From Candidatus Omnitrophota bacterium (GTDB taxonomy: Bacteria > Omnitrophota > Gorgyraeia > Tantalellales > Tantalellaceae), in the NCBI GenBank assembly GCA_049643885.1, contig JBARQV010000020.1, positions 10,670 to 74,669 on the forward strand: a stretch of 64,000 bases of DNA, in the 5' to 3' direction. This document shows, in pieces, positions 2-64,000 of this stretch. The position numbers and the translations under genes are program-made. The notes beneath the pieces are model-generated. The model did no database searches, was not told the DNA's origin, and saw only the letters and a program-made list of their open reading frames with translations. Each line of letters begins with the position of its first letter. Positions within the stretch are counted from its first letter, which is position 1.

Positions 2-3000
2 GTGAAAGAAGGCCGTGCAGGAGCAGCGAAACAAGCCCAGGAACTTTCCGGTAAATATAAGCACATGGCTGAGACGAACGCTGAATTGGCCCAAACAGAA
101 TTCAAGGCAAAGATATCCGGAGTAGCTACACCAAGGCAAGCCGCTGATATTAAAGTACTTAAGGCGGCGAGATTGAGTTTAGCCAAAGAAATGGGTTGGA
201 CCGGAAAACAGTTACGTACCAGTGGGAGAGTAGCAAGAAGCATGGTAAAAGCTATGATGAGGATGTATACCGTTTCGGGCGGCACATATCAATTGACGAC
301 TGTTCAGGTAAAGGCGCTATCCGCTGCTTTGACGCAGGCAATGAATAACAGCGGGACGCTTGATGTTACAAAAGCGGCCATGGGGATGATAGGATTGTCC
401 TGCGGTGCGGGTAAATCCTTCCCGATCGTTGCCATGAACCTGGCATTTCTCGAGGCAAAGGCAAGTGAGATGGGAGCAAAGGGCATGACCAAAACCCAGA
501 TACAGGCTGCGCTGCAGAAGATGAAGCTTGGTATCGTCACCGATACGGCTACAAACGCGCAGGATTTTCTCCAGAAAAGCGAGATGGACGCCTTGAAGCA
601 ATTCTGTAAGGAGAACGGTATCAATATCACACTTGTCGAGAACGCGGGCCAGATGACCGATGCCGGCGGGCTATTTATATTCAACGCGCATTCACTCATG
701 TCCACTTTCTATGAGAAAGCCGGCGCATTGAAAGGCTTCAGCATGGTCAATGTCGACGAAGCCGAAGCGGTATTCCAGTCGACCAGGTTGAGTTACAGCT
801 CCCTAGTGAATGCCTGGGCTGCAGCGGGAGTTACTACGCAGGCGGCTTGGAAAGCAAAGAACGCGCTGTGGGAAGGATTCGCAAATAGGACCATGGAAGT
901 TTTTAATGTGAAAATGGGCGGGAAGATCACAACAGTATCGCCTCTCCAGCGCTGCGGAGAGACAGGACAAATAAGGTGGAACGCAAAGGCATTCAACACA
1001 GAAGTGAAGGCGTTTCTGAGCACCAAAGCAGGCCGGAGTCTTGCCAGACAGGTCGGCGGCAAACAAATGGCAAAGAGGATGCTTACTGCTTTCGCGAACA
1101 GGGCCACTACGACACTCCTGCAGAGAGTTAATCAGGCGGGAAGCATTAAGATACAATCCGATGCACAGGGAAGATTCGTAAAATATGACTTGCTCGGTGG
1201 AGGCCAAGCCACCATGGCTAATACACAGCTTGGTGACTCGATGTCTGCCATGGCTGTTCTTTTCCGCGCGAAAGCCGGTAAGAGTATAGGAGGAATGGGC
1301 CTCAAGGCAAAAGCCGGAAGCACCTGGGACGCGGAAACCTTCAATGCGTTTAAGACCAGTTCAAAGGGCGGTGTGAGCATATTTGAAGCCCTGAACTTTA
1401 TTGACGCGAACAATGCTTTCGGTTCAAAGAGCGTCAGCATAGGATGGGGCGGAACTATAGAGGGCTGTAGGAATATCCTGGGAGCGAAGGGTGCGGTCCT
1501 TTATGACCTCGGGACGACCGGGTTGGAGGCTATGGGGCTGGTGAGCCTGAGCGATGGGAATTGTACGGGACGACTTGCAAACCGTGCCCTTGATAGGTAT
1601 GAAAGTATCCAGGCCTCGCCTAATGAATTAATGGCCATTGCCGGTGGTGCGCAGGGCCAGTCCGGGGGTGTGTACCGCGCTATTACCGCCGGCGCCAAAG
1701 CCCGAGGCATGAAGGTTGAAATGCAGACACATGGTAATGCTCTTAAGTTCCAGGAAGCCTTTGCCGCGGCAGCTGCAAAGGGACCTGCCGCGCTTAGGGC
1801 ATTTGGCAAGAAGATACATATTGTTGCGGAATGTGTGACTGCCGTTAACCTTTTCAAGACTAACGATGCAGGATTTATGAAGGCAACCGGTCCGAACGGA
1901 CAACAAATTGACATGTTTAACCGCGGCTTATTCCTGACAAATGGTGTGAATACTTCTTCGAACATGCTGCAGCAGGCCGCTCGCGGTAATATCCAGGTGA
2001 CTGATGCAAATGGTAAAACCGCTTTCAGGAGGATGGCAATTGAAATTCACCACTTCATGGATATAAATGATCTTCAGGGGACCGCCGGGCAGATGAGCGA
2101 ATTGAGGACGGCTATGCAGAAAGCCGGCGGCGTAGAAGTAAAAGGCAGTCTTGCAGGGAACAAGGGCAATGCGGGCGCTGAATTTGCAGCCGGTTCCAGG
2201 GGAGCCGTCGATGCTGCCTGGAACATAATGAAAAGCATGAATAACAGGATAGACGTCCGGCAGGCGACAGAGGTCCGCCAGGTCGTAAGGACTTCCGGCA
2301 AGGATATAAGTTTCAGGACGGGAACGGTATCGCAAACAGCGGCCCCGGCGCTGGTCCAGGTTGCCGCGCAGGTCCGGGGGACCTATGATATGGAATGGGA
2401 CACTATGAACACTGAAGACAGGCGCGCGGCGGTTTATGACAGCACTGCTTTTCAATCCCTGGATTCAGTGGAAGCCAGTCTCTTCACGGGTGCGTTCGAG
2501 GCGGATAGTTCACTTTCCTCGCTGAACGAGAATTCGGTCGTAGCCGCGATCGGTGCGGTCAATGATGTCAACGATATGGGAGGAGAGAGGACTGACTCTG
2601 ATAATATGGGGAGATTACTTGACAGAGTAAAGGGTATGGATAGCCTGTCGCAGGGCATGGCTGTCAGCGCGTTCTGCAGCGATATGTCCGTATCCGAATT
2701 CTTCCAGATAGCCGGTGCGCAAAGAGTACTCGGAGGAGAAGCAGGCGTAAAGGAGATAATTAAGTCAGAAGGCCTCGCGGAAGATACAAGTCCTGTTGAG
2801 TTTATTCGCCATGATATTGTTGCCGGCGGCGCTGCAAGGCTGCTTGATGTAGGCCCGGCCCAGTTAAGAGAGATACCGAGCATAAGAAGGGTTGCCAGGG
2901 GACGCGACGCCGACCACAACGCTGCAGCCGCGCTTGGCGCGCGTATGCTCGGTAGAGAAAAGTTAGATAGTGGAAATACCGGTCATATCGCCGCGTTCAC

Positions 3001-6000
3001 AGCCGCAGCGGGTCTCCTGGGCATGTCCAGTTTTGGCGCGACTAATTCTGCCCAGAATTTCTTTACGGGTAAAGCATTGGAGAGAATAAATACGCAGCAT
3101 TCCGGCCAGCTTGACGCGATGTTACGGCAGTTGACAAGCGTGCCGCAGCGCGGCAGGCCTTCAGCTCCGGCCGGCGGGAGTATACAGGAGCTTGTAGGCG
3201 CGATGTCAGATAGCGCGAATATGGGTGTGCGCATGACGGGCGCTTCTTACGGCCCGACGATGACCGGCGAGGTTCTTCTAAGCAAAGCCGCGGAGGTCCA
3301 GGCGACAGGTAATACCGTCAGTGTCCAGGCGCATGGCGTAACCGTCAATGTAGCGGTCGACGCTAGTATTGCCGATGTGGCCGCAGTCCAGACATCGTTC
3401 CAGGCGGCGCTCAGCAGTATGACGTCCCGGCAGATGAGTGCTATAAGTCAGACTCTCCAGGGCAGGCCCATGACGATCATTTCCGCTGCCAAGACCCAGT
3501 CGGCTTTTGAGAATCACGCGCAGGACGGTGTCGTCGTAGTGAACAGCTCGGTGTTCAACAAGACAGCGGACAATCCCGCTTTGAGGGCGGCCCTCCTGCG
3601 GGTAGGGTTCACACACGAGATGCGCCATGAAGCCGGTGTGGGCAACACCGCCGCGGAAGAGATGGCGCTTGCCTTCGGCGACGCCGCCACGTTTGTAAAT
3701 ATGTCCCAGCAGAACCCGGCGCTCATGACATCCATGCTGGCATTGCTGAATGATATAGCGACTCCCGCGAGCTCCTTCGGTATAGCCGTCAGGGCGCTTA
3801 TGAGCAACGACCTTTTAAGCAGTGGCGCGGTAGGCATAACAGCCGAGGTTGTGGACGGCGCGGCAACGCTGAACCTCGAGGGTGTTACAAGTCTTGCGGC
3901 GTTTAACAGTATAGCCCATACAATGGGGCTAATGGGTGCGACCGTAACGGCGCAGGTTCAGTTGGCCGGCATGGCTCAGCCTGTGGTCCTCCAGTCCCAG
4001 ATAAGGGATGGCGTGGCGGATACGTTCGCTACCGGTTTTGTCGCGCAGTCAGGCCAGGTCATAAGTCTTGACGCGGGTGTCAATATCAGCACAGCCGAAC
4101 AGTTCTCTCAAGCGCAGGCGGGCCTGAGCGCGATGTCAACGATAGCCCAGGGTGCGATAATGAATAACGCTGCCGGCTTTGTGTCAGTGGCAAATCAATT
4201 TGCGGCTCTGGGAAGAGGTATTACGGCTGAGGTCCAGGGTGTATTTCTGAGGTCGGCTGTTGAAAATAACGCGGTAACCGGAGTGCAGGCCGCTGCCCTC
4301 AGGACATCCGCAGGCCAGGTCATAAACCTGGCCCAGGTCATGAGGTTGGACATGAATATCGACGGCACCCTTACAAACGCTTCCATGACACTTATGAATG
4401 ATCTCGTCAGCGCTACTTCCGCGATAAGGGACATGACGGTTGTTGACGGTGTAGCCAGATTGAATCTCGTCGATGTCGGCATGCAGGCGTTCAGCGATAT
4501 TGCGGCTACAATGGCGCAGACGGGTATGTCGGTTACGGCTCAGGTCAAACTGGATGCCGTGGATTCGTCAGTTGTCCTCCAGTCGCAGGTCAGGGAAGGG
4601 GTCATAGACAGGACGCTCGTCACCGGACTCGTCACACAGGCTGACCAGGCGATAAACCTCGCGAGGCATATGGATATGAGCATTGTAAGCACTGCCGAGG
4701 GCTTGAGCAGGCTGCAGGCGCTGTCAGATATAACCTCACAGGTGACCAGTAAGGTGAGTGTCGATGACTTTGTCCAGCTGGCGCAGGCATTTGATGCCAG
4801 AGGTCAACAGATCACCGCCGAGACCGCTCAGGGCACCATGCTCCGTTCAGAGATAGCACTGGATAGCACCTTAAGGGTGAACGCTGTCGCGCAGAGGACA
4901 GCCGCCGGCCAGGTCGTCGATCTTGCCGAAAAGATGCTTGTGGCAGTGCAGGAAGCCCGCGCTTACGCTTCTAGTACGGGAATAGATGCGCTCGTAAGCG
5001 CTGCCGGCGCGGTAAGAGGTTCTGTGAATGACGCTCGTTCGTTCAACAAAGTGGCCGCTGATTTCGCGAAGGACGGCATAGCCATAAAGATGGAGGTTGC
5101 CGACGGTGTATCACTCGAATCCAGGGTGACGGATAATGAAGTTACGGGATTACTGGCGACCCGGGCAGGAGAGATAGGCAGGATATCGCTTGAAGTCCGT
5201 CCCGGCGGCATGCTTACCGAAGCCGGTCTGGCCAGGGCCGCTGAAGTGCTTGGCGTTGAAATTGAAATTGCGCCGGTATCGGAAGTCGCCGCGGATATGG
5301 CGGCAAGGGTCATGGACGCCTTCAGATCGGCTCTTACAAGTTCCAAGATAGGCGCCTTGAGGACAGTAATGAACATAACGGCAGGCGCCGCGCAGGCTAC
5401 CGATGCCCTCGCGGGTACTGTAAGGGATTTTGTGGATGCGCTTGGACGCAGGACGAGAGAGATAGACCTGGCAGAGATCATGAAGATCGACCCGGGCCTC
5501 GGCCAGCAGCTGCAGGGCCTCCTTGATGTGGAAGGGGTGGATATAAGCACGCGTCCGGCTAACGTTATGGATATAATCGTGGCTTTGAGGACCGGGAAGA
5601 CCCCGAGCGCGGTGAGCGCGGTGGAACAGGCGCTTTTCACGCTTGACGGTGTGATGATACAGAAAACGGCCGACGGTAAGCTCCTGCTCCAGTTCGCTAA
5701 CGGCGCCGATATGAATGACTTCCAGAACATGACGATGAATTTGAACGCGGCTACACTTGCGCAGATACAGACAGCGCTCGACGCGGGGCTGCTTGACCGC
5801 GTAGCTTCGGGTCAGTTGAACGCGGCCGACAGGCAAGTGATGAACATGATAGGCATGATCCTGGCTGAATGGTCGAGATACTCCGCGCTTGGTTTTAACT
5901 TTGCTCCGGATTCAGCGACGGCCAATATGATAAACAGCATTGTGCAGCAGATGGTAGATACGGGTAACCTCTCTCAATTACTTACCCTTGTGAAGAGCCA

Positions 6001-6910
6001 CGCGCCTGAAGGAGAGAAGACAAGCGCGGCGTCAATGGTCATGAAGGATATTGTGGGTATACCGGAACAGGTTGCGCGCCGTCTTGCGATCGCGGAACAG
6101 AAGGCTCTGGCGAATTTCGTGAAAGAGGTCGTTGAGAAAGCGACGCCGATGCAGCCGGCTCACGTCATCATGCAGACGCTGACCCCGGCGTCCATGTTCG
6201 GGGCCGATGTAGCGTCTGACATGACGATGGCGGAAGCGGCCCTGCAGGCCAATCCGGCGGTACGGGATCTGTCAATGGCTGCAGGGGAAGCCATTTATAA
6301 TAATGACGGAATACTTGAAGACGCGGAAGTGGTCCATATGCAGGCAGTGGATGCCGGGCTACTTGCGACCGAAAAAGACCTGGAAAAGATCGAAAGGATC
6401 GCAAGGTTATATGAGAGCATGAACGTTCACAAAGGCAGTAAGTTCCGCCTGATTATCGTAGGTGATGTTTCAGATACAATTGCCAGGAGGCTGGACTCTA
6501 ATGGTATTAAGCGTCTCGGGAAGAAGGCTGTCGAAGATTCTCCACGCGCAGCCATTAACGACGTGCTTAATCAGCAGAAACTGCAGAGCACACTGACAGC
6601 TGTGATGAAGGGCGACGAGGCCTACGCGGACGCGTTTGCGCGTGAGGTTGACAGTCTCATTATTGTGGATAACATGAACGTCTTCGGCGCGGCGACTGCA
6701 AGTTATATAAGGCATCGCGTTGTGGGGAAAGGCGAGCTCAGTTGTACGGGATTTACGGACGCGGCAAGAGACAAGTTACAGCAGTTGAGAAAGGGAAGCA
6801 ACAGGGCCGCAGGCAGCAACAACTTCAACGTCGATATCAGGGAAGAAGAAGCACGTGAGGAAATGGACGAGTATATACTGTCGGACATGGAAGCCGACGT
6901 CGCCTTCTAA
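2..6910 (+). CDS. C-terminal 2302 aa of a giant protein (5' end outside window). Low-charge Ala/Gly/Thr/Val/Gln/Met-rich, probably fibrous or extracellular; contains two ~197-aa internal repeats
   Basis: ORF open from the window edge to TAA at 6908-6910. Uniform composition, no competing ORF, same strand as and 185 bp upstream of giant gene 2. Confidence 0.85.
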   Translation: MKEGRAGAAKQAQELSGKYKHMAETNAELAQTEFKAKISGVATPRQAADIKVLKAARLSLAKEMGWTGKQLRTSGRVARSMVKAMMRMYTVSGGTYQLTTVQVKALSAALTQAMNNSGTLDVTKAAMGMIGLSCGAGKSFPIVAMNLAFLEAKASEMGAKGMTKTQIQAALQKMKLGIVTDTATNAQDFLQKSEMDALKQFCKENGINITLVENAGQMTDAGGLFIFNAHSLMSTFYEKAGALKGFSMVNVDEAEAVFQSTRLSYSSLVNAWAAAGVTTQAAWKAKNALWEGFANRTMEVFNVKMGGKITTVSPLQRCGETGQIRWNAKAFNTEVKAFLSTKAGRSLARQVGGKQMAKRMLTAFANRATTTLLQRVNQAGSIKIQSDAQGRFVKYDLLGGGQATMANTQLGDSMSAMAVLFRAKAGKSIGGMGLKAKAGSTWDAETFNAFKTSSKGGVSIFEALNFIDANNAFGSKSVSIGWGGTIEGCRNILGAKGAVLYDLGTTGLEAMGLVSLSDGNCTGRLANRALDRYESIQASPNELMAIAGGAQGQSGGVYRAITAGAKARGMKVEMQTHGNALKFQEAFAAAAAKGPAALRAFGKKIHIVAECVTAVNLFKTNDAGFMKATGPNGQQIDMFNRGLFLTNGVNTSSNMLQQAARGNIQVTDANGKTAFRRMAIEIHHFMDINDLQGTAGQMSELRTAMQKAGGVEVKGSLAGNKGNAGAEFAAGSRGAVDAAWNIMKSMNNRIDVRQATEVRQVVRTSGKDISFRTGTVSQTAAPALVQVAAQVRGTYDMEWDTMNTEDRRAAVYDSTAFQSLDSVEASLFTGAFEADSSLSSLNENSVVAAIGAVNDVNDMGGERTDSDNMGRLLDRVKGMDSLSQGMAVSAFCSDMSVSEFFQIAGAQRVLGGEAGVKEIIKSEGLAEDTSPVEFIRHDIVAGGAARLLDVGPAQLREIPSIRRVARGRDADHNAAAALGARMLGREKLDSGNTGHIAAFTAAAGLLGMSSFGATNSAQNFFTGKALERINTQHSGQLDAMLRQLTSVPQRGRPSAPAGGSIQELVGAMSDSANMGVRMTGASYGPTMTGEVLLSKAAEVQATGNTVSVQAHGVTVNVAVDASIADVAAVQTSFQAALSSMTSRQMSAISQTLQGRPMTIISAAKTQSAFENHAQDGVVVVNSSVFNKTADNPALRAALLRVGFTHEMRHEAGVGNTAAEEMALAFGDAATFVNMSQQNPALMTSMLALLNDIATPASSFGIAVRALMSNDLLSSGAVGITAEVVDGAATLNLEGVTSLAAFNSIAHTMGLMGATVTAQVQLAGMAQPVVLQSQIRDGVADTFATGFVAQSGQVISLDAGVNISTAEQFSQAQAGLSAMSTIAQGAIMNNAAGFVSVANQFAALGRGITAEVQGVFLRSAVENNAVTGVQAAALRTSAGQVINLAQVMRLDMNIDGTLTNASMTLMNDLVSATSAIRDMTVVDGVARLNLVDVGMQAFSDIAATMAQTGMSVTAQVKLDAVDSSVVLQSQVREGVIDRTLVTGLVTQADQAINLARHMDMSIVSTAEGLSRLQALSDITSQVTSKVSVDDFVQLAQAFDARGQQITAETAQGTMLRSEIALDSTLRVNAVAQRTAAGQVVDLAEKMLVAVQEARAYASSTGIDALVSAAGAVRGSVNDARSFNKVAADFAKDGIAIKMEVADGVSLESRVTDNEVTGLLATRAGEIGRISLEVRPGGMLTEAGLARAAEVLGVEIEIAPVSEVAADMAARVMDAFRSALTSSKIGALRTVMNITAGAAQATDALAGTVRDFVDALGRRTREIDLAEIMKIDPGLGQQLQGLLDVEGVDISTRPANVMDIIVALRTGKTPSAVSAVEQALFTLDGVMIQKTADGKLLLQFANGADMNDFQNMTMNLNAATLAQIQTALDAGLLDRVASGQLNAADRQVMNMIGMILAEWSRYSALGFNFAPDSATANMINSIVQQMVDTGNLSQLLTLVKSHAPEGEKTSAASMVMKDIVGIPEQVARRLAIAEQKALANFVKEVVEKATPMQPAHVIMQTLTPASMFGADVASDMTMAEAALQANPAVRDLSMAAGEAIYNNDGILEDAEVVHMQAVDAGLLATEKDLEKIERIARLYESMNVHKGSKFRLIIVGDVSDTIARRLDSNGIKRLGKKAVEDSPRAAINDVLNQQKLQSTLTAVMKGDEAYADAFAREVDSLIIVDNMNVFGAATASYIRHRVVGKGELSCTGFTDAARDKLQQLRKGSNRAAGSNNFNVDIREEEAREEMDEYILSDMEADVAF
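3614..3637 (+). other. HEMRHEAG: HEXXHxxG zincin-like motif in gene 1. Could be a metalloprotease active site or a chance match
   Basis: In-frame cac gag atg cgc cat gaa gcc ggt; Glu residues follow 14-15 aa downstream (AAEEMA). Confidence 0.2.
3849..5030 (+). repeat. Two divergent tandem ~591-bp (197-aa) protein-level repeats inside gene 1. Both start VVDG(A/V)(A/R)(T/L)LNL and contain TVTAQVQL / SVTAQVKL and VVLQSQ(I/V)R(D/E)GV
   Basis: Translated segments align at period 591 nt (anchors gcgaccgtaacgg at 3938 vs tcggttacggct at 4529). About 40% aa identity, so not a nucleotide-level repeat. Confidence 0.6.
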
Positions 6911-7095: not shown

Positions 7096-10000
7096 ATGAA
7101 GTACTTATCTCAAAACGCCACAGAACGCCGAGACCCCATGGGCGGTAAAGAGATGCTGGCAAACAAGGCATTCAGGAGCCCGAAAGCCAGGCCATGGATG
7201 AAGACTATCTCGTGTGTCATCATCCTTACATTTCTCTTCCAACAGGTGGTCTTTGGCCAGGAAATAACCCCTGCGGCACCAGCCGAAAAACCCATTGTAG
7301 TTAACGGCCGTATCGATCTCAGGCAGGTCTCTCTTCCGCGTGATATCGCTATCACTAAAGAAGTGAGCATGGCCAAAAGCGAAGAGATTATCATCGATAT
7401 AAAGGACGCCCACGACAATTTCGGCGCCCAGGAGTCCATAGTCGCGGCGCTTGAAAACCTCCTTATAAATTACGACGTCAAGTTCATCGGGGTAGAAGGC
7501 TCTGAAGGGTTGATCGATATGGGCCTGATCTCTTCTTTTCCCGACGAGGATATCAAAAAAGAAACCGCCGAATACCTTATGCGCCAGGGTAAGATATCGG
7601 CCGGTGAATTCTTCGCGGCGACCTCAAAGACGCCCATAATGCTCTACGGTATAGAAGATACCGATCTTTACCTCAGGAATTACACTGATTTTATAGCCCT
7701 CCATGAAAAGATGAAAAGTAACCTCAAGTATGTGGACGGCCTGAGAAGGGCTCTGTACGCGCTTGAAGACCACGTGTTTTCGGAAGAACTCAAAACTCTT
7801 AACAGGAGCTCGATCCTCAGTAAAAACGGGAACAACAGGTTCACCAGGCGGTGGGAGTATATCGAGAACCTCGGCAAGAAATACGGCGTCAGCATAGAAG
7901 AGTATGAAAATATCAGGGCCTTGATACACACGATGGTGATAGAGGACTCGATAGATTACAAGGCCGTCAACGCGCAGAGGGAAAAGCTCCTGGACATACT
8001 GACCAAACGGCTCCCGAGGGACCAGCTCGAGGAGCTCATCCTCAAGAGCCTGAACTTCAAACTCGGCAAAATATCGAAGAGCCAGTTCTATACTCACCTC
8101 TTGTTCCTTGCTAAGGGGGAGGAACTTGACAGGGAAACCTATGACAGCATCGAGGTCTTCTGCGATTTTGTGAACACGTATGAGTCTATAGACATCGGCA
8201 CCCTCATGGACGAGATCGATGAATATGAATGCAAGATAAAGGATAAGCTTTTCACAGGCGAAGAGGACCGGGAGCTCACGCATCTTTTAAAGAACGTGGA
8301 GATACTCCATAATCTTTACCAGGTCCGGCTTACCAGCGGACAGTTGAAGTATTTCCGGGAGAACAAGGAAGATTTCAGCTCCGAGATATTCCTGGATTTT
8401 ATAAAGGATACGTACCAGAAATACGGCATGCGCGTCCCGGAAAACCTCCGCAGGAACACGTATAAACTCTTCGAGATGCTTCCCCAGGGTATAGACTTTT
8501 ACGAAGCCGCCACCAAAAGGAACCGCGCTATGGTCGACAACACCATAAAGCAGATGCGGGAAAATGGTGTTACGGTGGGAGCGATAGTGACCGGGGGGTT
8601 CCATACGAGGGGCATATCCGAGGTGCTTAAGTCCGATGAGGTCTCTTACCTGATACTCCTGCCCCGGTTCAACGCTCGGAACAACAAACGCCCCTACATA
8701 ACCGTCCTGACGAACAAAGCCGCTGAGTATAAGCATTATGTGGAATCGGGCAGATACCTTGCCGCGTCCTCTTACTTTTCGATGATGCAGGGTATTTTGG
8801 AAGGCTCCGGCCAGGAGGATACGGCCCGCAAGACAAGACTTGAAGCCCTGGCCGTCATGATAGGCCTGTACAGCCAGGGAAGGAGGGAGAGAGGCACGTT
8901 CAGCCAGAGGATACTGAACAATATGAAAGAAAGGCTCATGGATCAGTTCAAGGCGGGCCAGGAGCAGAAGCTGAAAGCGGGACAGATCACCCAGGGACAA
9001 TACGAAAGCCTGGTAAATGAGATGGAGACGCTCCTGGATAATACGTTCGTGACCTGGAAAGGAGAGGTTCCCCAGGTATTTATTAAGTCCACGGAAGGCA
9101 ATTTCATGTATGCCGTTGAAGCGGAGAAGGTGGAAGGAGAGACAAAACCCGTTGTTATGCTCGCCGCGTATGATGGCATTTCGGGTAAAAAGATCGAGAG
9201 CGTGAAACTGGAGAGCCAGATAATGGAGGCGGAGCTTGCCGCGGGAGAAGCAATAGACATGGGCAAGGAACTCTTAGCCAGAGTCCAGAAACTGAAGAAC
9301 GAGCAGTTTTTAAAGAGGTTTGGCATTGAGGCGAAAGCCCAGCTGGAAATAGAGATACTCAAAGGCAAGCTGGCCGATGCCGAAGACCTTCAAGAATGGC
9401 TCGAAACTAAGCTGACGAAAATGGCGAACGCCATGCGTGTCGATAAAGGACAGGTAGAGGCCGAAGCCCAGAAGATAATAAGTAGCCGTGTAGAAGAACT
9501 GACTGCCACCCTTGCCCGGGCAAGAGAAGGGGAAGTGTCCCCAGCCAAGCGTGTTGGCGAAGCGGTAGCGACAAGAAAAGCCGCTGATGATCTAGAGAAG
9601 GAAGTCAGGGCAAGCAAAGAATTTCAAGATCTCGTAGCTAAAGCAGAAGAGCAGAAACCCTCGGATATGATGGGGTCTATCAAAGTTGTAAAGCACGATT
9701 TCAAAGGTACTGGAGTCGCCGCGTTCAACTACCGTGAAGGGGAAAGGACTGGCATCCTCAAAGAAGGCAGGACATTAGTTGTAGCGCTCAACCAAAGCTA
9801 TATAGATGAAGCGGTTAAAATGCTCGAAGCGGCAGGGATAACGGAGATCACCGTGACCGTTGTCGAAAGGAGGCGGAAGAAAGAAGTCAAGATGTCCGTG
9901 AGGGAAGCGCTTGAACAGGAACTTATAGATCATGAGAAAAAAGAGGATCACTGGGTAGCAAAGCGTAAGGTCGGTGAAAGGCGGGGGCACATTCTGGCAA

Positions 10001-13000
10001 GCGCGGAAACTGCTCTAACATGGAGAGCAAAAGAGTTGGGCGGCCTTTCTTTGTTCCATTACATAGAACTTAAAATGATGGGATTTGAACAGCTTGAGGC
10101 CCTGGCAAGAGAGGACAGGACTGACCAGCATAAGATACTCAAAAGTGCGAAGATGGATCAAGCCATAGGTTATGAAGAAAATATGCAAAAGGCCGCGAGA
10201 GAAGAGGCCGAGCGCAAGATGTCCCCAGAGGTCAAGAAAAAGAGAGAAGACGCCGCGGTCCTAGCCAAAAAAGACGCTGTCGATAAAGTCAGGGGCGTGT
10301 TTGTCAGTATACACACGCAGGTACAGGCCGAACTGAGCAAAGTCCAGGGCCTGATCGATTCAGGCAAGCTTGATGATGCAGCGAGCCTTATGAAAAAGAT
10401 ATATTCAAGGCTTGAAGATCAAATAAAAGCGGCAACGGGTAAAGTAGGAAAAACATCTCCGGAGATGCTCAATGAAAAGGCTGTCCAGGAAGCCCTGGAA
10501 ATGGCTGAGCTAGCTCCTAATGCCCTGAATAGGGAACTTTTAAGATCGCTTATGAACCGCGATGCGGGAGCGTTTCTAACGGCCTTGGGGAACGCTCAGA
10601 AGGGCCTTGACCTGGACGGAAGGCCTATAAAAACCACAGCGGATGCGGAAAGGGCAATGCAGGAGGCGAAGAGAAGACAGGAGGCCGCATATGGTTCCTG
10701 GCTTGCAGCTGGATATGAAGACCTGGCCTTTCAGTATATGAGACGCGCGGGGGATAGGTATAAAGACAGGGTCATGATAGAAAGTCTTGGCCGTGAGATT
10801 AAGATCAATACAGGCTTCTTATTATTTGATCTCATCGATGCCGTCAACGGTTACCGGCAAGGAAAGGTCAATGCCAATGTTATTATGCTTTTGACCCAGC
10901 TTTATCAGGTATCCCTGGATGCTAATGCTGAGGCTAAGGGAACTAAGGCGGCCAAATGGGCCGATCATCTGATGAGCGGATTAAAAAATGCGCAGGAGAG
11001 GGCGAAAGACCCTAAAGACCCGCTTCTGGAACAACGTAAGGATAAGGTCAGGAATCTTGATATTGGTAGTTTTATGGGTGAGATCGGCGGGATCATAAAA
11101 GTAGCGCGTGGCGAAAAAGCTAAGGCAGTCGAAAAAGCCCCAGCCGCCCCGGCGGCAGCAGCTGAAATCGAAACAACAAGTTCTGAATTCGCGAGCAATG
11201 TGATGAAAGCGGTCCAGGCCAGACTCGATGCTATTGTGGGTAAAGGCAAAATAGCTGCTAAAGTTCGGGAATACATCGCCCGTAATTATGTAAAAGTTCT
11301 GGGCAGGAGATACAAAGCTATAAGCGCAGACAGAATAGTCCCTGCGATAAATATTTTAATGAGAAATGAAGCGGAAGTTATAAAAATGCTCGAGGAGGCG
11401 CAGACCAGGGTGCTTGAAGCGCTCCACGAGGAAGCTGTGAAGTTTTATGATGAAAAGATCGCGATCCACGTTTCCAAAGCGAAAACTGCCGCTGACTACC
11501 TGCAGGAAGAAGGCTTATACAGTCAGCTGAGAACAAAGATGCAAGCCGCGATAGAAGTGCGTAAAAAAGGCGCCGAAGCAGGTGTTATTCTACGCGAATC
11601 CGGGATCATTGAAAAAATGGATAGCCTGGAGACAGATGGAATTAAAATGGCGGATGATGGCATAACAACGGCGCAAAAACGTCGTGCGAAATTAGCCGAG
11701 GCAGAAGCAAAGAAAAAAGTCGCCCCTGCCGCACCGGTCGCAGCTAAGGCAGAGGCGGATAGACGAGCTGCCGAAGCTAAGGCAGAGGCAGATAGAAAAG
11801 CCGCTGAAGCCAAAGCTAAGGCAGAGGCAGATAGACGAGCTGTTGAAGCAAAGGCAGAGGCAGATAGACAGGCCGCTGAAGCCAAGGCAGAGGCAGATAG
11901 AAAAGCCGCTGAAGCTAAGGCAGAGGCAGATAGAAAAGCCGCAGAAGCCGAAGCTAAGGCAGAGGCGGATAGACGAGCTGCCGAAGCTAAGGCAGAGGCA
12001 GATAGAAAAGCCGCTGAAGCAAAGGCAGAGGCAGACAGAAGAGCCGCTGAAGCCAAGACAGAGGCAGAGAGACGAGCCGAAGCAGAGGCCGAGGCAAGGA
12101 GAGAAGCCGAAGATGCCGAGGCAAGAAGGGAAGCCGAAGATGCCGAGGCAAGGAGGGAAGCCGAAGATGCCGAGGCAAGGAGAGACGCCGCAGAGGCCGC
12201 GGCCAGAGCCAGGGCTGAGGACGACGAGTGGGTAGCGGCTGAGCAGGAGATAAAGGATCTAAAGGCAAGGATCGAAGAGACCAGGGCTGATGCCAAAGCT
12301 GCGCGGGAGAAGGCTGAACAGCTGCAGGCAGACACCGGAGTGGCCATTTCCCCGGAAATGCGGGATGCTGCACGTGATGCTAAAGCGCGCCTGGACGCTG
12401 TCCAGAAAGATCTGGATGAAGCAGAAGCGGCAAGAGAAGAGGCCGCCAAAGAAGTAGACGATTTAAAGGAAAAAGCAGACGACCTGGCCAAAAAGGCCGA
12501 AGAAGCCGAAAAAGCCCCCGCCACCCCGGCGGCTGTAGTAGGAAAAGCGATCAGTCCCGAAGTACAGAAGGTGTTAGATGAGGGCGGTGTCGAGAGGTTT
12601 ATAGAAAAGAGGTTAGGAATTATTAGTCGTAATGAGACCGCTAATGCTATTCTTATGCTGGAAGAATTTTGTAACAGTCTTATCGAAAAAGGCATCGATC
12701 CGGCATCAGTTTTTGACGCCAAACAATTGTCAGATTTTAAAGCAAATATGGCTAACGGAATAGCACTTTTTAGCCAAATTGCGACTAATAAACAAATGAA
12801 AGCAACAGATTTTGCTAAGCAACTTGATGCTCTGATTATTGATAAGACATCTCCAATTGCCTCATCCTATTATGAACTTTTTGCAAAGTACATAAACATG
12901 GCGGAGCCAACATCGGCAGGTAGGGAAGCACGAGCTGGTAAAGTAAAAGAAGCGTTTGCTATGGCTATGGCTGGATTTATCAGAAGCGGTCTTGTGAATG

Positions 13001-16000: not shown

Positions 16001-19000
16001 TTCGCGACGAAGTTTTGGGCATGAGAGAGATCGCCAAAGCCGTTGTAAAAAAGATGGCCTGGTGGAGGTGGGGCTCATTGGTAGCCTTGGTAACCGGAAA
16101 GAAAGCAAAGATCCGGAATGAGCTGAAGGACAGGCTGCAGGAATGGGCGCTACTATTGATGGAACTGCTTCCGAAAGAACAAGCGGATAGATTCAAGGAT
16201 GAACTGAAAATAATAGGCGAATACAACGAAAAAGAAAAGACGTTCACGATTCATGAAGGTTTCGATTTCAAAAATGCCGTCGATATTATAGATTATCTGG
16301 CCAAGGTATCTATGGTAACCGTCGGCATGAAGACCGAAGAGAGAACGGAAGAAGGAGTGACGAGAAAATTCTATTCATTCGATGATACGGCCGTTTCGCT
16401 GGGAACCGTGGACAAGGTATCGAAAGAAGTCGGTTCAGTCATGCATAAACTTAACCAGATACTGAATCCCGAACCAGTTTCCGATGAAGTCGATAAAGTC
16501 AGCGATGAACAAAAGAAGAAGGCTCAAGAAAAGGCCACTAAAGGGTTCAGCGACCTTCTTGTCAGGATCGACGAGGCATTTGGCGGCAGGCTCGATGCTG
16601 CCAAAAAGCAGAACCTTGTGGATGCAAAGAAGCTTATCGGTGAAATACTTGAAGAGGTAGAGAAGAAAGTAAGCCGCTCGGGCGTAATAATGACAAAGAC
16701 CCTCCAGCTCATCAAACTTTTAGATAATGTTGTTTACGGAAATTCCATTGGCAAAATAAAGGAATTTCTTGAGGTGCAGCTCGGAGTCGACAAGATCATC
16801 GAAGAGAAGGACATCGATGACATTATGAGAGGGCTCGGCGTAGATGATAAGGCGGAAATAGACCAGTGCGTAAAACACGTCCTTGAAAAAGTGGACAACA
16901 CAAAGAGAAGAGAAAGGCTTGCCGAATACATTGTAAAGTTCATGCTCACCGGACATATTAAACCGGAAAAGATGGAGTTTTTTAACGTGAGCCCGGCAGA
17001 ACGTCAAGGTCTTATAGACGAAATAAGTGTAGGCATCGAGTTGAGTGAAATGATCCGCGAGAGAAAGGAGGAGATCGCTGAAGAGCTGAAAAAGAGGAAA
17101 CAGCGTTTTTCCGACCCGAATAACAAGGATAACGAGCTTGTATACGAGTTCGTTGCCCTGTACCAGATGTCCGCTCTGCTTATGAAGGGCGAGTCGCCTT
17201 TCATCGAGCAGGTCCTGACGGGTCTTTTCATGGCCGACAGCTTTTTTGTGGATATGGCTACCGGAGCGGGGAAAACGCTTTCTTTTCCTCTGGCGAACAT
17301 GCTGACCAGGTGCAATTCGGACGGCGGGAAGCATCCCGAGGGGCTCAAGAGCATGCATCTCGTCACGCACGGTTATTATACCGAGAGGGATTTCAGGGAA
17401 ACACATTTCATTTACAAGATGATGGGATATAAAGTCGCGTATCTTACTGACGAAGACAGGGAACTTGAAGCGGCGCACAAGTCCCTGGGCGATAACGATG
17501 TCGTTATAACTTCCTATTCAGCCCTTAGTTTCCTGTGCCTGGAAGCGGGCAAGATGGACAATCCCAAGAGCAAAGACTGGTTCGAGCTCCTGCAAAAGAC
17601 AAGGCTTACCTTTGACGAATGCGATGTCGCGCCGAGACTTGCCGATTTCATAACCGCGGCGATGCAGAACAAGTTGAGTTTGAAAGAATACATGAAGTTA
17701 CACGTGCTTTTCAAGACCGCCGAAAAACTGCATGAAAAAGGAGGAATAAGCGCCATATACTCCCTGTTCGAAGATAATATCGTGGGCGTCCTGGATAAGC
17801 AGGACAGGGCAAATCTTGATAAGCTTCGGAAGATGCTGGGGTTTGAAGAAGAGCCGGACCAGGTGGAGATAAACGATAAAGGGAACATCGTAATAGAAGG
17901 TAAGGAATATACGAAAAAACAGCTCAAAAAAGCCAAACAAATAGCCGTGCAGGGCTCCAAGTTTCTTGTTAAGCATTCGGATCAAAAGGGTTTTGTTTTC
18001 ACCAGGATGGAATACACCGCCCCGGTGGATCTCGACCCGCGAAAGGTTAAAAAGCGCATGGAGGATACCGGTAAGACCGAAGAGGAAGTAGAGGAAGAGC
18101 TCCGGAAAGAAGCCCTCGGTGCCAGCGGGGCGAAGATCGACCTTGTCTCGAGGAGCGCGTACGGGAACGAAAGCACCAAAGATATGGTGGCCGGGATAAT
18201 GCGCAGTATCACGTTCGGCCTGACCAGTACCCTCGGTAAGGAAGTCATAGAGGATACACCGACATGGCAGGAGTTCCTGGATGTCGTCAAGGTCCTGTAT
18301 GTAGACGAGGAAAACGTCGATTACAGGCTCAAGTACCAGGAAAAGGACGAAGTGCCCGCTATTTCGGTAAGGGAAGTCGACGGTGAAGCGGTTGTGTTCA
18401 AAGGAGAACAGATCGTCGAACCCGCTTTTAACGTGGAACGCCGCGCGGACGGTTCGGTCCGTATCGGGGATGAGACGGCGTCATATGTCATCAGCGATCA
18501 GTTTTTCAAACAAAGAAAGACCGATGATGAAAGGGTCATCTTTCTCGGTGGTAAACGGTACAGGGTCTCAAAAGGCAAGAAAGGCGGATACGAGCTCCAG
18601 GAAGTCGCTATGGAGATAGTCCTTCTTGATGAACAGACAAAGAGGGAACAGGGAAAGCAGAGGAAGGATACGTTCCACACGCTTTATGAGATGAAACACC
18701 ACCTGAAGAGAGACAGGCCGGATACGCCGGAGATAAGGGGCGATAACAAGAGTTCTGACCAGTGGAATATCGCTAACGTTGTCGATAAGGCGCATTCACT
18801 CGGTGGCGCCAGCGGATCGGTCAAGGACGCGGCAAGGGTGATGCTTGGTTTCTTCGGGAAGAAATGTAAACCCAGGATAAAGAAACTGCCCCCGCCTATC
18901 GCCAAAAAGGGAGCGCATAGACAGGGCATTTTCGTGCCGAGTGACAAAAGATTGTGGCAGGTAACGCTTAACAGGATAAAGCAGATATACACGCTTTCCC

Positions 19001-35544: not shown

Positions 35545-35970
35545 GCTAGGAATTAGAAGATAGAAATTAGTTGGGTCTGAAGCGCACTATAAGGGCCGTT
35601 AGCATCTTAGATAGGGCAAGAAATTGGGCATACAGATTTTCGAACTCGCTTTTACTGATCACGTTGGCTCTGTATAGAACAGTGATTATAGGGATACACT
35701 CGGAAACAGAGCCTTGAGATACTACGAAAGACTGCTTCTTTTCCCGGTTGCTTCTACGACCACTTCCCTCGGCTATATTGCAGGAAATGGACAAAGTCGC
35801 CCGTACAAGGTTATTCCCTATAGATCTTTGTAAATTGTAGGACATCTTGCTGAATATTGGGTATATTGATGAAGCGACATCTAAAGATACCTGGTACACG
35901 GTTAATCCCTCAAAGGCAAATTTCTTCATTGGGCGTCCTCCATACTAATTTCTATCTTCTAATTTCTAGC
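35545..35970. mobile_element. Compact 426-bp cassette bounded by 26-bp inverted repeats (25/26 match) that encodes only a four-helix-bundle protein. IVS-like or miniature insertion element
   Basis: Left arm gctaggaattagaagatagaaattag (35545-35570). Right arm ctaatttctatcttctaatttctagc (35945-35970) is its reverse complement with 1 mismatch. The arms overlap the stop codon and lie 16 bp upstream of the ATG of the enclosed minus-strand gene. Confidence 0.5.
35567..35929 (-). CDS. Four-helix-bundle protein of the TIGR02436 / 23S rRNA intervening-sequence protein family, 120 aa
   Basis: Signature NIAEGSGRRS...QGSVSECIPIITVL...LYAQFLALSKMLTALI matches the family pattern NIAEGxGR...GSxxE. Clean ORF between the inverted repeats. 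Confidence 0.8.
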   Translation of the reverse strand: MKKFAFEGLTVYQVSLDVASSIYPIFSKMSYNLQRSIGNNLVRATLSISCNIAEGSGRRSNREKKQSFVVSQGSVSECIPIITVLYRANVISKSEFENLYAQFLALSKMLTALIVRFRPN

Positions 35971-36274: not shown

Positions 36275-36434
36275 TATATAGTAATTAGACGATAAAAAAG
36301 GCAGTTAGGGTTATTTATCGTCGGGAAAAACGACTTGGCAAAGAAGACTTGGCAGCAGCTTGGTAAATGACTTGGCAGACTTGGCGAAAAAGACTTGGCG
36401 AACAAAAACTTGGCAAAGAGGCTTGGCGAAAAAT

Positions 36435-64000
<27,566 letters not shown>

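Follow-up and report, generated by a model that had tools for sequence, protein, structure and literature searches.

The 64,000-nucleotide stretch of Candidatus Omnitrophota DNA analysed here (the window: GenBank assembly GCA_049643885.1, contig JBARQV010000020.1, positions 10,670 to 74,669 of the forward strand) carries three very long open reading frames (ORFs) on its + strand, and it raises the question of what function is shared by the N-terminal ends of two giant proteins with unrelated bodies. The giant proteins of Omnitrophota, which range from 9,000 to >100,000 amino acids (aa), are largely unannotated, and published surveys describe N-terminal regions without identifiable domains. An earlier note on this DNA had proposed that genes 2 and 3 each begin with a signal-anchor and a hydrolase-like domain resembling TraB, GumN and TIKI. 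We call this N-terminal module the head, and we conclude that it has the predicted fold of, and is probably, an exported, very divergent hydrolase of the TIKI/erythromycin-esterase/ChaN/TraB superfamily with a large helical lid. We treat the head as a very large and so far unannotated branch of this known superfamily, placed in an architectural setting that is new, and not as a novel type of system. The two genes and their heads are laid out as follows (residue numbers are those of the encoding gene).

7096-35367, + strand: gene 2, ORF of 9,423 aa, with an AAGGTG Shine-Dalgarno sequence upstream of ATG 7096
7321-8739, + strand: conserved head domain of gene 2, aa 76-548
7321-7710, + strand: N-terminal half of the TIKI-like core of gene 2, aa 76-205, from residue conservation and model strands
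7405-7407, 7411-7413 and 7495-7497, + strand: D104, H106 and E134, which with Q112 are invariant in the N-terminal half
7711-8457, + strand: family-specific all-helical insert of gene 2, aa ~206-454, from model secondary structure, with invariant E283 and R295
8458-8739, + strand: C-terminal half of the TIKI-like core of gene 2, aa 455-548, from conservation and sub-threshold profile matches
8518-8520 and 8602-8604, + strand: R475 and the His of T-G-G-F-H503, which lie in the C-terminal half with F468-Y469, N482, P523 and Y534
36435-64000, + strand: gene 3, from its first ATG at 36435, >9,188 aa, continuing past the window end
~36570-38156, + strand: overall stretch of gene 3 homologous to the gene-2 head
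36696-38114, + strand: gene-3 copy of the TIKI-like head domain, aa 88-560
36792-36794, 36876-36878 and 37977-37979, + strand: H120, E148 and H515, which with D118 and R487 form the putative catalytic set of gene 3

The duplication proposed in the earlier note was borne out: BLASTP aligned gene-2 aa 34-562 with gene-3 aa 46-574 at 35% identity and 61% positives (E=6e-117). The shared module of ~530 aa consists of a basic n-region, a predicted signal peptide and then a domain of ~473 aa. Its N and C motifs, which read IIIDIKDAHDNFGAQESIVAALENLLINYDVKFIGVEGSEG and AIVTGGFHTRGI in gene 2 and TIINIQDAHASLAAQKSIVSLLDHMVANYDLNLIAVEGSEG and ALITGGFHTEGL in gene 3, occur in both genes as they had been quoted. 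The span first assigned to gene 2, 7201-8720, is sound and corresponds to aa 36-542, with the conserved domain proper ending somewhat later; the second copy is present as claimed, its limits being wider than the 36740-38060 originally given. In a codon alignment the two heads have 50.8% DNA identity, 37% identity at third codon positions and a longest exact match of 12 nucleotides. The claim of amino-acid similarity stands. That of additional nucleotide similarity falls away, because this DNA identity is no higher than amino-acid conservation alone would give; judged from their sequences, the heads are paralogues of long standing, maintained by purifying selection. The third-position identity and the short exact matches led us to reject both a recent duplication and gene conversion. 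Outside the head, genes 2 and 3 showed no BLASTP similarity even at E<=0.1, and gene 1 resembles neither; with the alignment confined to the head, paralogy of the whole genes was likewise rejected. Since the head is all that the two proteins have in common, it behaves as a module joined to unrelated bodies.

Invariant residues and predicted fold

Conservation was scored by aligning the two heads with 157 cluster representatives of <=50% mutual identity, using gene-2 numbering. Six polar residues, D104, H106, Q112, E134, R475 and H503, are invariant in 154-157 of the representatives, and the His and Glu residues that the earlier note had singled out are among them. The other invariant polar residues of the head are E283, R295, Y469 and Y534, with N482 present in 152/154; G135, G185, G500, G501 and P523 are invariant as well.

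Template-free AlphaFold2 models were made for gene-2 aa 60-560 and gene-3 aa 72-572 from an 18-sequence alignment each, and these had predicted local distance difference test (pLDDT) values of 80.9 and 80.1, respectively, and a predicted template-modelling (pTM) score of ~0.7. The same order of secondary-structure elements was found in both. The chain begins with a beta/alpha part, in which strands at aa 98-104 and 130-133 end at D104/H106 and E134, and continues into a long all-helical region (~aa 190-460). R475 and N482 lie on the helix that comes next; T-G-G-F-H503 then forms the end of a strand, after which one further strand follows. The helical insert that splits the halves of the core is ~250-300 aa long. 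In both models the putative catalytic residues follow the ends of beta-strands, as judged from strand order. In the predicted fold, helices flank a central parallel beta-sheet to give an alpha/beta core like that of Bcr135, ChaN, HopBA1 and RRSP, and the modelled strand ends would carry an acid-x-His, a Glu and a second His, together with a conserved Arg. When 48,164 chains were ranked by structure against the two models, 7-8 different TIKI-superfamily chains came out on top, aligning over 138-183 residues as against ~105-125 for generic folds. The head's fold matches are named as members of the TIKI superfamily in PMC6254334.

The spacing of the putative catalytic residues also agrees with that in characterised branches. 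The first His and the Glu are 28 residues apart in the head (H106-E134), in RRSP (H3902-E3930), in Bcr135 (H85-E113) and in EreB (H46-E74), and the distance from the Arg to the last His is 28 in the head (R475-H503) and 29 in both RRSP (R4001-H4030) and EreB (R259-H288). An objection would be that the structural match reflects a Rossmann-like alpha/beta resemblance of a general kind, or an artefact of modelling, and that the head belongs to no known superfamily. We regard this as very improbable, given that TIKI-superfamily chains lead the ranking for models of two paralogues only 35% identical, that the alignments are longer than those to generic folds, and that the motif spacing agrees with three characterised branches.

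Several results weigh against the superfamily reading. Neither native head had a relevant match in Pfam or NCBIfam. Searches of the PDB with hmmsearch, using full and insert-deleted alignments, returned chance matches only (troponin C, HSP90), and Foldseek against the PDB found nothing at E<=1e-3. With hhalign, a shallow YbaP/TraB alignment scored a probability of ~2% and the Ere family, including 120 diverse sequences, P=0.15-0.29; neither is significant. The first acidic residue of the head's set is Asp, not Glu. Finally, ChaN, PMT and HopBA1 have the head's fold and are not known as enzymes.

Below significance, the searches gave matches of the following kinds. The top Foldseek probability against the PDB was that of EreC (0.87, E-value 0.04), and the helical insert draws long helical proteins as matches. 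A Pfam scan of the 18 first homologues gave a single match, to PF04187 (E=0.12). When 33 constructs with the helical insert deleted were scanned in Pfam, PF04187 (ChaN) was matched by 6/33 (best E=0.035, 14.5 bits against a gathering threshold of 27.7) and DUF5694 by 1/33, again below threshold; PF01963 (TraB) was matched only by the insert-deleted family consensus (E=0.095, 13 bits against 26.8). The commonest sub-threshold match was DUF5682 (7/33 constructs), a family whose membership of the TIKI clan could not be confirmed. In each case where coordinates were given, the PF04187, PF01963 and DUF5682 matches placed the C-terminal motif on the corresponding model end. PF05139 gave no match at E<=10 in Pfam scans of native or insert-deleted heads. 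In the non-significant hhalign pairings, VEG falls on E74 of Ere, and RN...GGFH on RN...GALH of YbaP (R475-N476 and G-x-H503), so that these partial alignments look topologically sensible. The earlier note had looked to an HHpred-type probability for TIKI/TraB/GumN, and the stand-in methods did not supply one: hhalign stayed at <3%, no Pfam family passed its threshold, and the Foldseek E-value was 0.04. The superfamily reading thus survives on its fold and motif geometry and fails on profile significance, and it is on fold and motif geometry that the assignment rests.

The examples of ChaN, which binds haem, of the PMT C1/C2 domains and of HopBA1 suggest a further possibility, namely that the head has a TIKI-like fold and serves as a ligand- or protein-binding or scaffold module without enzymatic activity. 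We think this rather improbable. The full acid-x-His, Glu, Arg and His set is invariant in ~155 representatives of <=50% identity, and its spacing is that of the active enzymes RRSP and Ere; such invariance would be unusual for a pure binding domain. Among the readings weighed here, that of a divergent hydrolase is therefore the one we prefer.

Predicted signal peptide, distribution and possible roles

The long basic n-region and hydrophobic core described earlier at the start of both proteins were readily found. Both n-regions are net basic and ~35-47 aa long, and Kyte-Doolittle hydrophobic peaks lie at aa 35-53 in gene 2 and aa 45-63 in gene 3. The predicted signal peptides are divided as follows.

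7096-7200, + strand: n-region of gene 2, aa 1-35, net basic, its length varying among relatives
7201-7257, + strand: signal-peptide h- and c-regions of gene 2, K36 to G54, with a predicted signal peptidase I site V-F-G↓Q55
36576-36632, + strand: signal-peptide h- and c-regions of gene 3, K48 to A66, with predicted cleavage T-W-A↓Q67-G-G

The alignment of most relatives starts at about position 28 in gene-2 numbering. Across them, K or R is found at position 36 in 150/152, the h-region covers positions 37-48 (~12 aa), and F46 is present in 151/155. In the c-region, position 52 is G, V, A, T or S in 142/155, position 53 is F or W, position 54 is Ala in 122/154 and Ala, Gly or Ser in 143/154, and position 55 is Gln, giving the consensus (Q/S/Y)-(Q/N/D)-(I/V)-(G/V/A/T/S)-(F/W)-A↓Q-G-G. 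Small residues thus occupy -3 and -1 in >90% of sequences, as the signal-peptidase I rule requires, which argues for a cleavable Sec signal peptide and not an anchor. With its conserved (G/V/A)-(F/W)-A↓Q site, the segment called a "signal-anchor" in the earlier note is more likely to be a cleavable Sec-type signal peptide.

The predicted topology of gene 2 is at odds with export of the head. No hydrophobic segment was found in gene 2 between the signal peptide and aa ~5030, and a SecA-like ATPase segment lies at aa 3335-3462; with no membrane segment before it, an exported head implies an exported ATPase. The predicted topology therefore presents a paradox, putting the ATPase on the exported side. 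The paradox would vanish if the hydrophobic segment were an uncleaved membrane anchor and the head were cytoplasmic, beside the ATPase, a topology opposite to that of the signal-anchor first proposed. This arrangement gains from the lack of a hydrophobic segment between the head and the SecA-like segment, which should need cytoplasmic ATP, and from the implausible localisation predictions reported for such proteins by West-Roberts et al. Set against it are the conserved K/R N-terminal to the h-region, the shortness of the h-region (~12 aa) and the small-x-Ala↓Gln c-region, which fits the (-3,-1) rule in >90% of relatives; together these point to an N-in orientation with an exported C-terminal side and cleavage. 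A cytoplasmic head thus seems unlikely, and export, with removal of the signal peptide, is the topology that we favour.

In the database, the sequences most closely related to the gene-2 head are without exception hypothetical proteins from Candidatus Omnitrophota, Omnitrophus magneticus among them. In a profile search over 1.84 billion cluster representatives (50% identity clusters), 9,784 matched the head profile at E<=1e-3 and 6,445 at E<=1e-30. Among the 150 best representatives, which include proteins of up to 7,834 aa, many of them ended by contig edges, the match starts within the first ~130 residues in nearly all. At least 573 loci in species-representative genomes encode a relative of the head. 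The best 80 of these all come from metagenome-assembled genomes, most labelled Omnitrophota and the rest Third Party Annotation (TPA) bins labelled 'uncultured Planctomycetia', and several of the genomes have more than one head copy. Every relative with a specific organism name is from Omnitrophota, and the head is essentially always N-terminal. In plasmid and phage collections tblastn with the head found no match, and these collections thus give no indication that mobile elements carry the module.

Neighbourhoods were compared for 74 related loci. The first motif lies 71-150 codons downstream of the preceding stop, and the distance from motif 1 to motif 2 is 377-481 aa, from which the helical insert appears to be universal. 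The head-bearing ORF extends past the 10-kb flank in 65 cases. As in the window, the upstream neighbour is another giant ORF on the same strand in ~25/41 loci with enough upstream sequence. In 8 Omnitrophota genomes (loci L012, L014, L021, L033, L041, L055, L058 and L075), one or two genes for AcrB-type resistance-nodulation-division (RND) transporters (PF00873, E down to 1e-273) are found directly upstream on the same strand.

Giant proteins with unrelated bodies have this head in common, and so it most likely gives them a shared function, in catalysis or in maturation, at their exported end. As an enzyme, the head would cross the cytoplasmic membrane first, as the leading part of the polypeptide, and the signal peptide would then be removed. 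A His-Glu pair may activate water for attack on a peptide or ester carbonyl, with the Arg helping in substrate binding and the helical lid gating access; catalysis could proceed with or without a metal. Candidate substrates are peptides, esters and the giant protein to which the head belongs.

In a more specific proposal, to which we give little weight, the head could be a shared maturation and export module of Omnitrophota giants. It would be either a TIKI-type peptidase that acts on its own chain or a domain by which a dedicated export route recognises the protein. Once the N-terminus had been threaded through the membrane by Sec, the head would cleave the growing giant chain at the envelope, or dock it there. 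Such a role would explain why the head is the sole conserved piece before thousands of unrelated bodies, and it might explain the RND-type transporters directly upstream in some genomes. In a related and similarly doubtful alternative, the head would be mainly a biogenesis or secretion handle for export or anchoring machinery, analogous to the TPS domain of exoproteins exported by two-partner secretion, with catalysis secondary, for example self-trimming. It is in keeping with a handle that the head is the sole part common to genes 2 and 3, that it is essentially always N-terminal, after an extended signal peptide, on otherwise unrelated giants, and that RND transporter genes stand directly upstream on the same strand at 8 related loci. 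A handle should, however, be weighed against the absence of a conserved partner gene in the window, the restriction of RND neighbours to 8/~41 loci with enough upstream sequence, and the invariant catalytic-type residues, which are better explained by an enzymatic function. A divergent exported hydrolase thus remains our preferred reading.

The finding is useful and moderately surprising. A large class of Omnitrophota giants, with several members in a genome and often encoded by tandem genes, is united by one N-terminal module, and the superfamily gains a very divergent branch with a large insert. The head sequence can serve as a marker for the starts of giant genes in fragmented metagenomes. 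Head aa 55-560 would make a soluble construct of ~500 aa with five obvious point mutants, workable without the giant protein.

Giant genes and other features of the window

The remaining features of the window are listed here.

2-6910, + strand: gene 1, ORF with its 5' end cut off
11749-12225, + strand: gene-2 aa 1552-1710, long Ala/Glu/Lys/Arg-rich repeat run of AEAKAEADRKA and EARREAEDA types
17098-17481, + strand: SecA nucleotide-binding domain 1 (NBD1)-like segment of gene 2, aa 3335-3462, matched to PDB SecA structures (E=1.7e-5)
17254-17277, + strand: Walker A motif MATGAGKT of the SecA-like segment
35430-35464: terminator-like GC-rich hairpin followed by T8, 63 nucleotides after the gene-2 stop codon, CGGGGAGGGC-N7-GCCCTCCCCG-TTTTTTTT
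35567-35929, - strand: 23S rRNA-intervening-sequence (23S-rRNA-IVP) family protein of 120 aa (PF05635, E=5e-21)
36333-36491: nine copies of RCTTGGCRR, on both sides of the gene-3 ATG at 36435
~61.6-63.4 kb, + strand: HEAT/alphaRep-like repeat block of gene 3, approximately aa 8,400-9,000

For gene 2, M35 (ATG 7198) was rejected as the start: it lacks a Shine-Dalgarno sequence at a fitting distance, whereas ATG 7096 has AAGGTG. Besides the SecA-like segment, gene 2 contains tetratricopeptide repeats (TPRs) and has hydrophobic segments near aa 5030-5560 and 8844-8930, including those at aa 5527, 8844 and 8910. Charged residues make up 30-46% of much of the protein, which suggests extended helical or coiled regions; in gene 1 the charged fraction is much lower, and gene 1 gave no match to gene 2 or gene 3. 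With a giant ORF, a divergent SecA NBD and several predicted membrane segments, gene 2 belongs among the Omnitrophota SecA-DEAD giant proteins. The gene-3 repeat block, near the C-terminal end of the visible part, matches PF13646 (E=1e-36) and designed alphaRep proteins (E=1e-41). The 9,188 aa of gene 3 that fall within the window yielded only the HEAT repeats, and nothing SecA-like was detected there. No support was found for "adhesin-like", the term used of the two proteins in the earlier note: gene 2 combines TPRs with a segment resembling the SecA ATPase, and gene 3 has HEAT repeats.

Because the hairpin behind gene 2 looks like an intrinsic terminator, genes 2 and 3 are probably transcribed separately; the PF05635 gene sits between them on the opposite strand. 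The gene-3 reading frame is open from 36309 to the window end. The RCTTGGCRR copies around its ATG are spaced at intervals of 9-42 nucleotides, mostly ~14, and Tandem Repeats Finder (TRF) gave periods of 14 and 23. Chance would account for 4.3 copies in the whole window, which has 13, a number that none of the shuffles attained. Sites bound by a regulator and sigma-54-like TGGCA elements are two candidate explanations; if an upstream TTG start were used, the copies would encode KTW(Q/R) repeats in the gene-3 n-region. The + strand shows positive GC and AT skew throughout, in each 2-kb interval (a purine-rich coding strand), consistent with three giant genes on that strand.

Comparison with known systems

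The structurally closest branch to the modelled head is that of the Ere enzymes (EreB/EreC and Bacillus cereus Bcr135/Bcr136, PF05139), though by motif and profile the head would not be placed in PF05139. In an Ere-family alignment of 28 sequences, built from database-verified EreB, E43, H46, E74, D260, H285 and H288 are invariant and R259 is nearly so. Like the head, Ere has an acidic residue before the first His and a Glu 28 residues later, and an Arg followed by Asp/Asn 28-29 residues ahead of the last His. The open and closed structures of EreC have a helical lid subdomain between two core halves, to which the head's insert can be likened. The head's insert is far larger, with E134 and H503 separated by 369 aa and E74 and H288 of EreB by ~214 aa. 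The motifs differ too, the head having D-x-H and GGFH, and Ere E-x-x-H and HNAH. Moreover, Ere proteins are free-standing cytoplasmic enzymes of ~410 aa, while the head is fused behind a signal peptide in proteins of >=9,000 aa. In Bcr135 the His-Glu pair is His85-Glu113 (PMC6254334).

RRSP (DUF5) has a 2His/2Glu set of E3900, H3902, E3930 and H4030 together with the essential R4001, and in both RRSP and Ere these residues work with no metal in catalysis (PMC6254334). The His and Glu residues of the head, called metal ligands in the earlier note, are thus at most putative ligands. The head has the same set as RRSP (E3900-x-H3902, E3930, R4001, H4030) in near-identical spacing, and like the head RRSP is a module in a giant bacterial protein, being an enzymatic module of a secreted MARTX toxin. 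RRSP is an internal effector domain that enters eukaryotic cells, and its toxin is exported by type I secretion; the head, in contrast, is at the extreme N-terminus behind a predicted Sec signal, and has no sequence similarity to RRSP.

ChaN belongs to PF04187 (Cofac_haem_bdg, Tiki superfamily), the TIKI-named Pfam family most often matched below threshold. ChaN is an exported lipoprotein, and export is also predicted for the head; ChaN differs in being a 255-aa haem-binding lipoprotein without a large insert, and an enzymatic role for ChaN is not established. TIKI1/2 and TraB/PrgY/GumN (PF01963) resemble the predicted architecture of the head proteins, in which a signal peptide precedes an extracytoplasmic TIKI domain and membrane segments lie further downstream. 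In Escherichia coli YbaP, R-N...G-x-x-H-x-x-G pairs residue for residue with the head in the non-significant hhalign alignment. The N motif of the head is Q-D-A-H, or (Q/K)-D-(A/V)-H across the family, and not the G-(T/S)-x-H of TraB. The head is thus outside the TraB/PrgY/GumN family proper and a member of the wider superfamily only.

As to the giant proteins, West-Roberts et al. (2023; bioRxiv 10.1101/2023.11.21.568195) described Omnitrophota giant proteins with SecA-DEAD domains, in which N-terminal regions were generally without identifiable domains except for C39 and S8 peptidases, and reported implausible localisation predictions for them. A TIKI-like head is mentioned neither in that work nor in a 2026 Omnitrophota preprint. 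In sum, gene 2 is like the SecA-DEAD giants of West-Roberts et al. in its Omnitrophota origin, its length of >9,000 aa, its SecA NBD1-like segment, its hydrophobic segments and its place among tandem genes.

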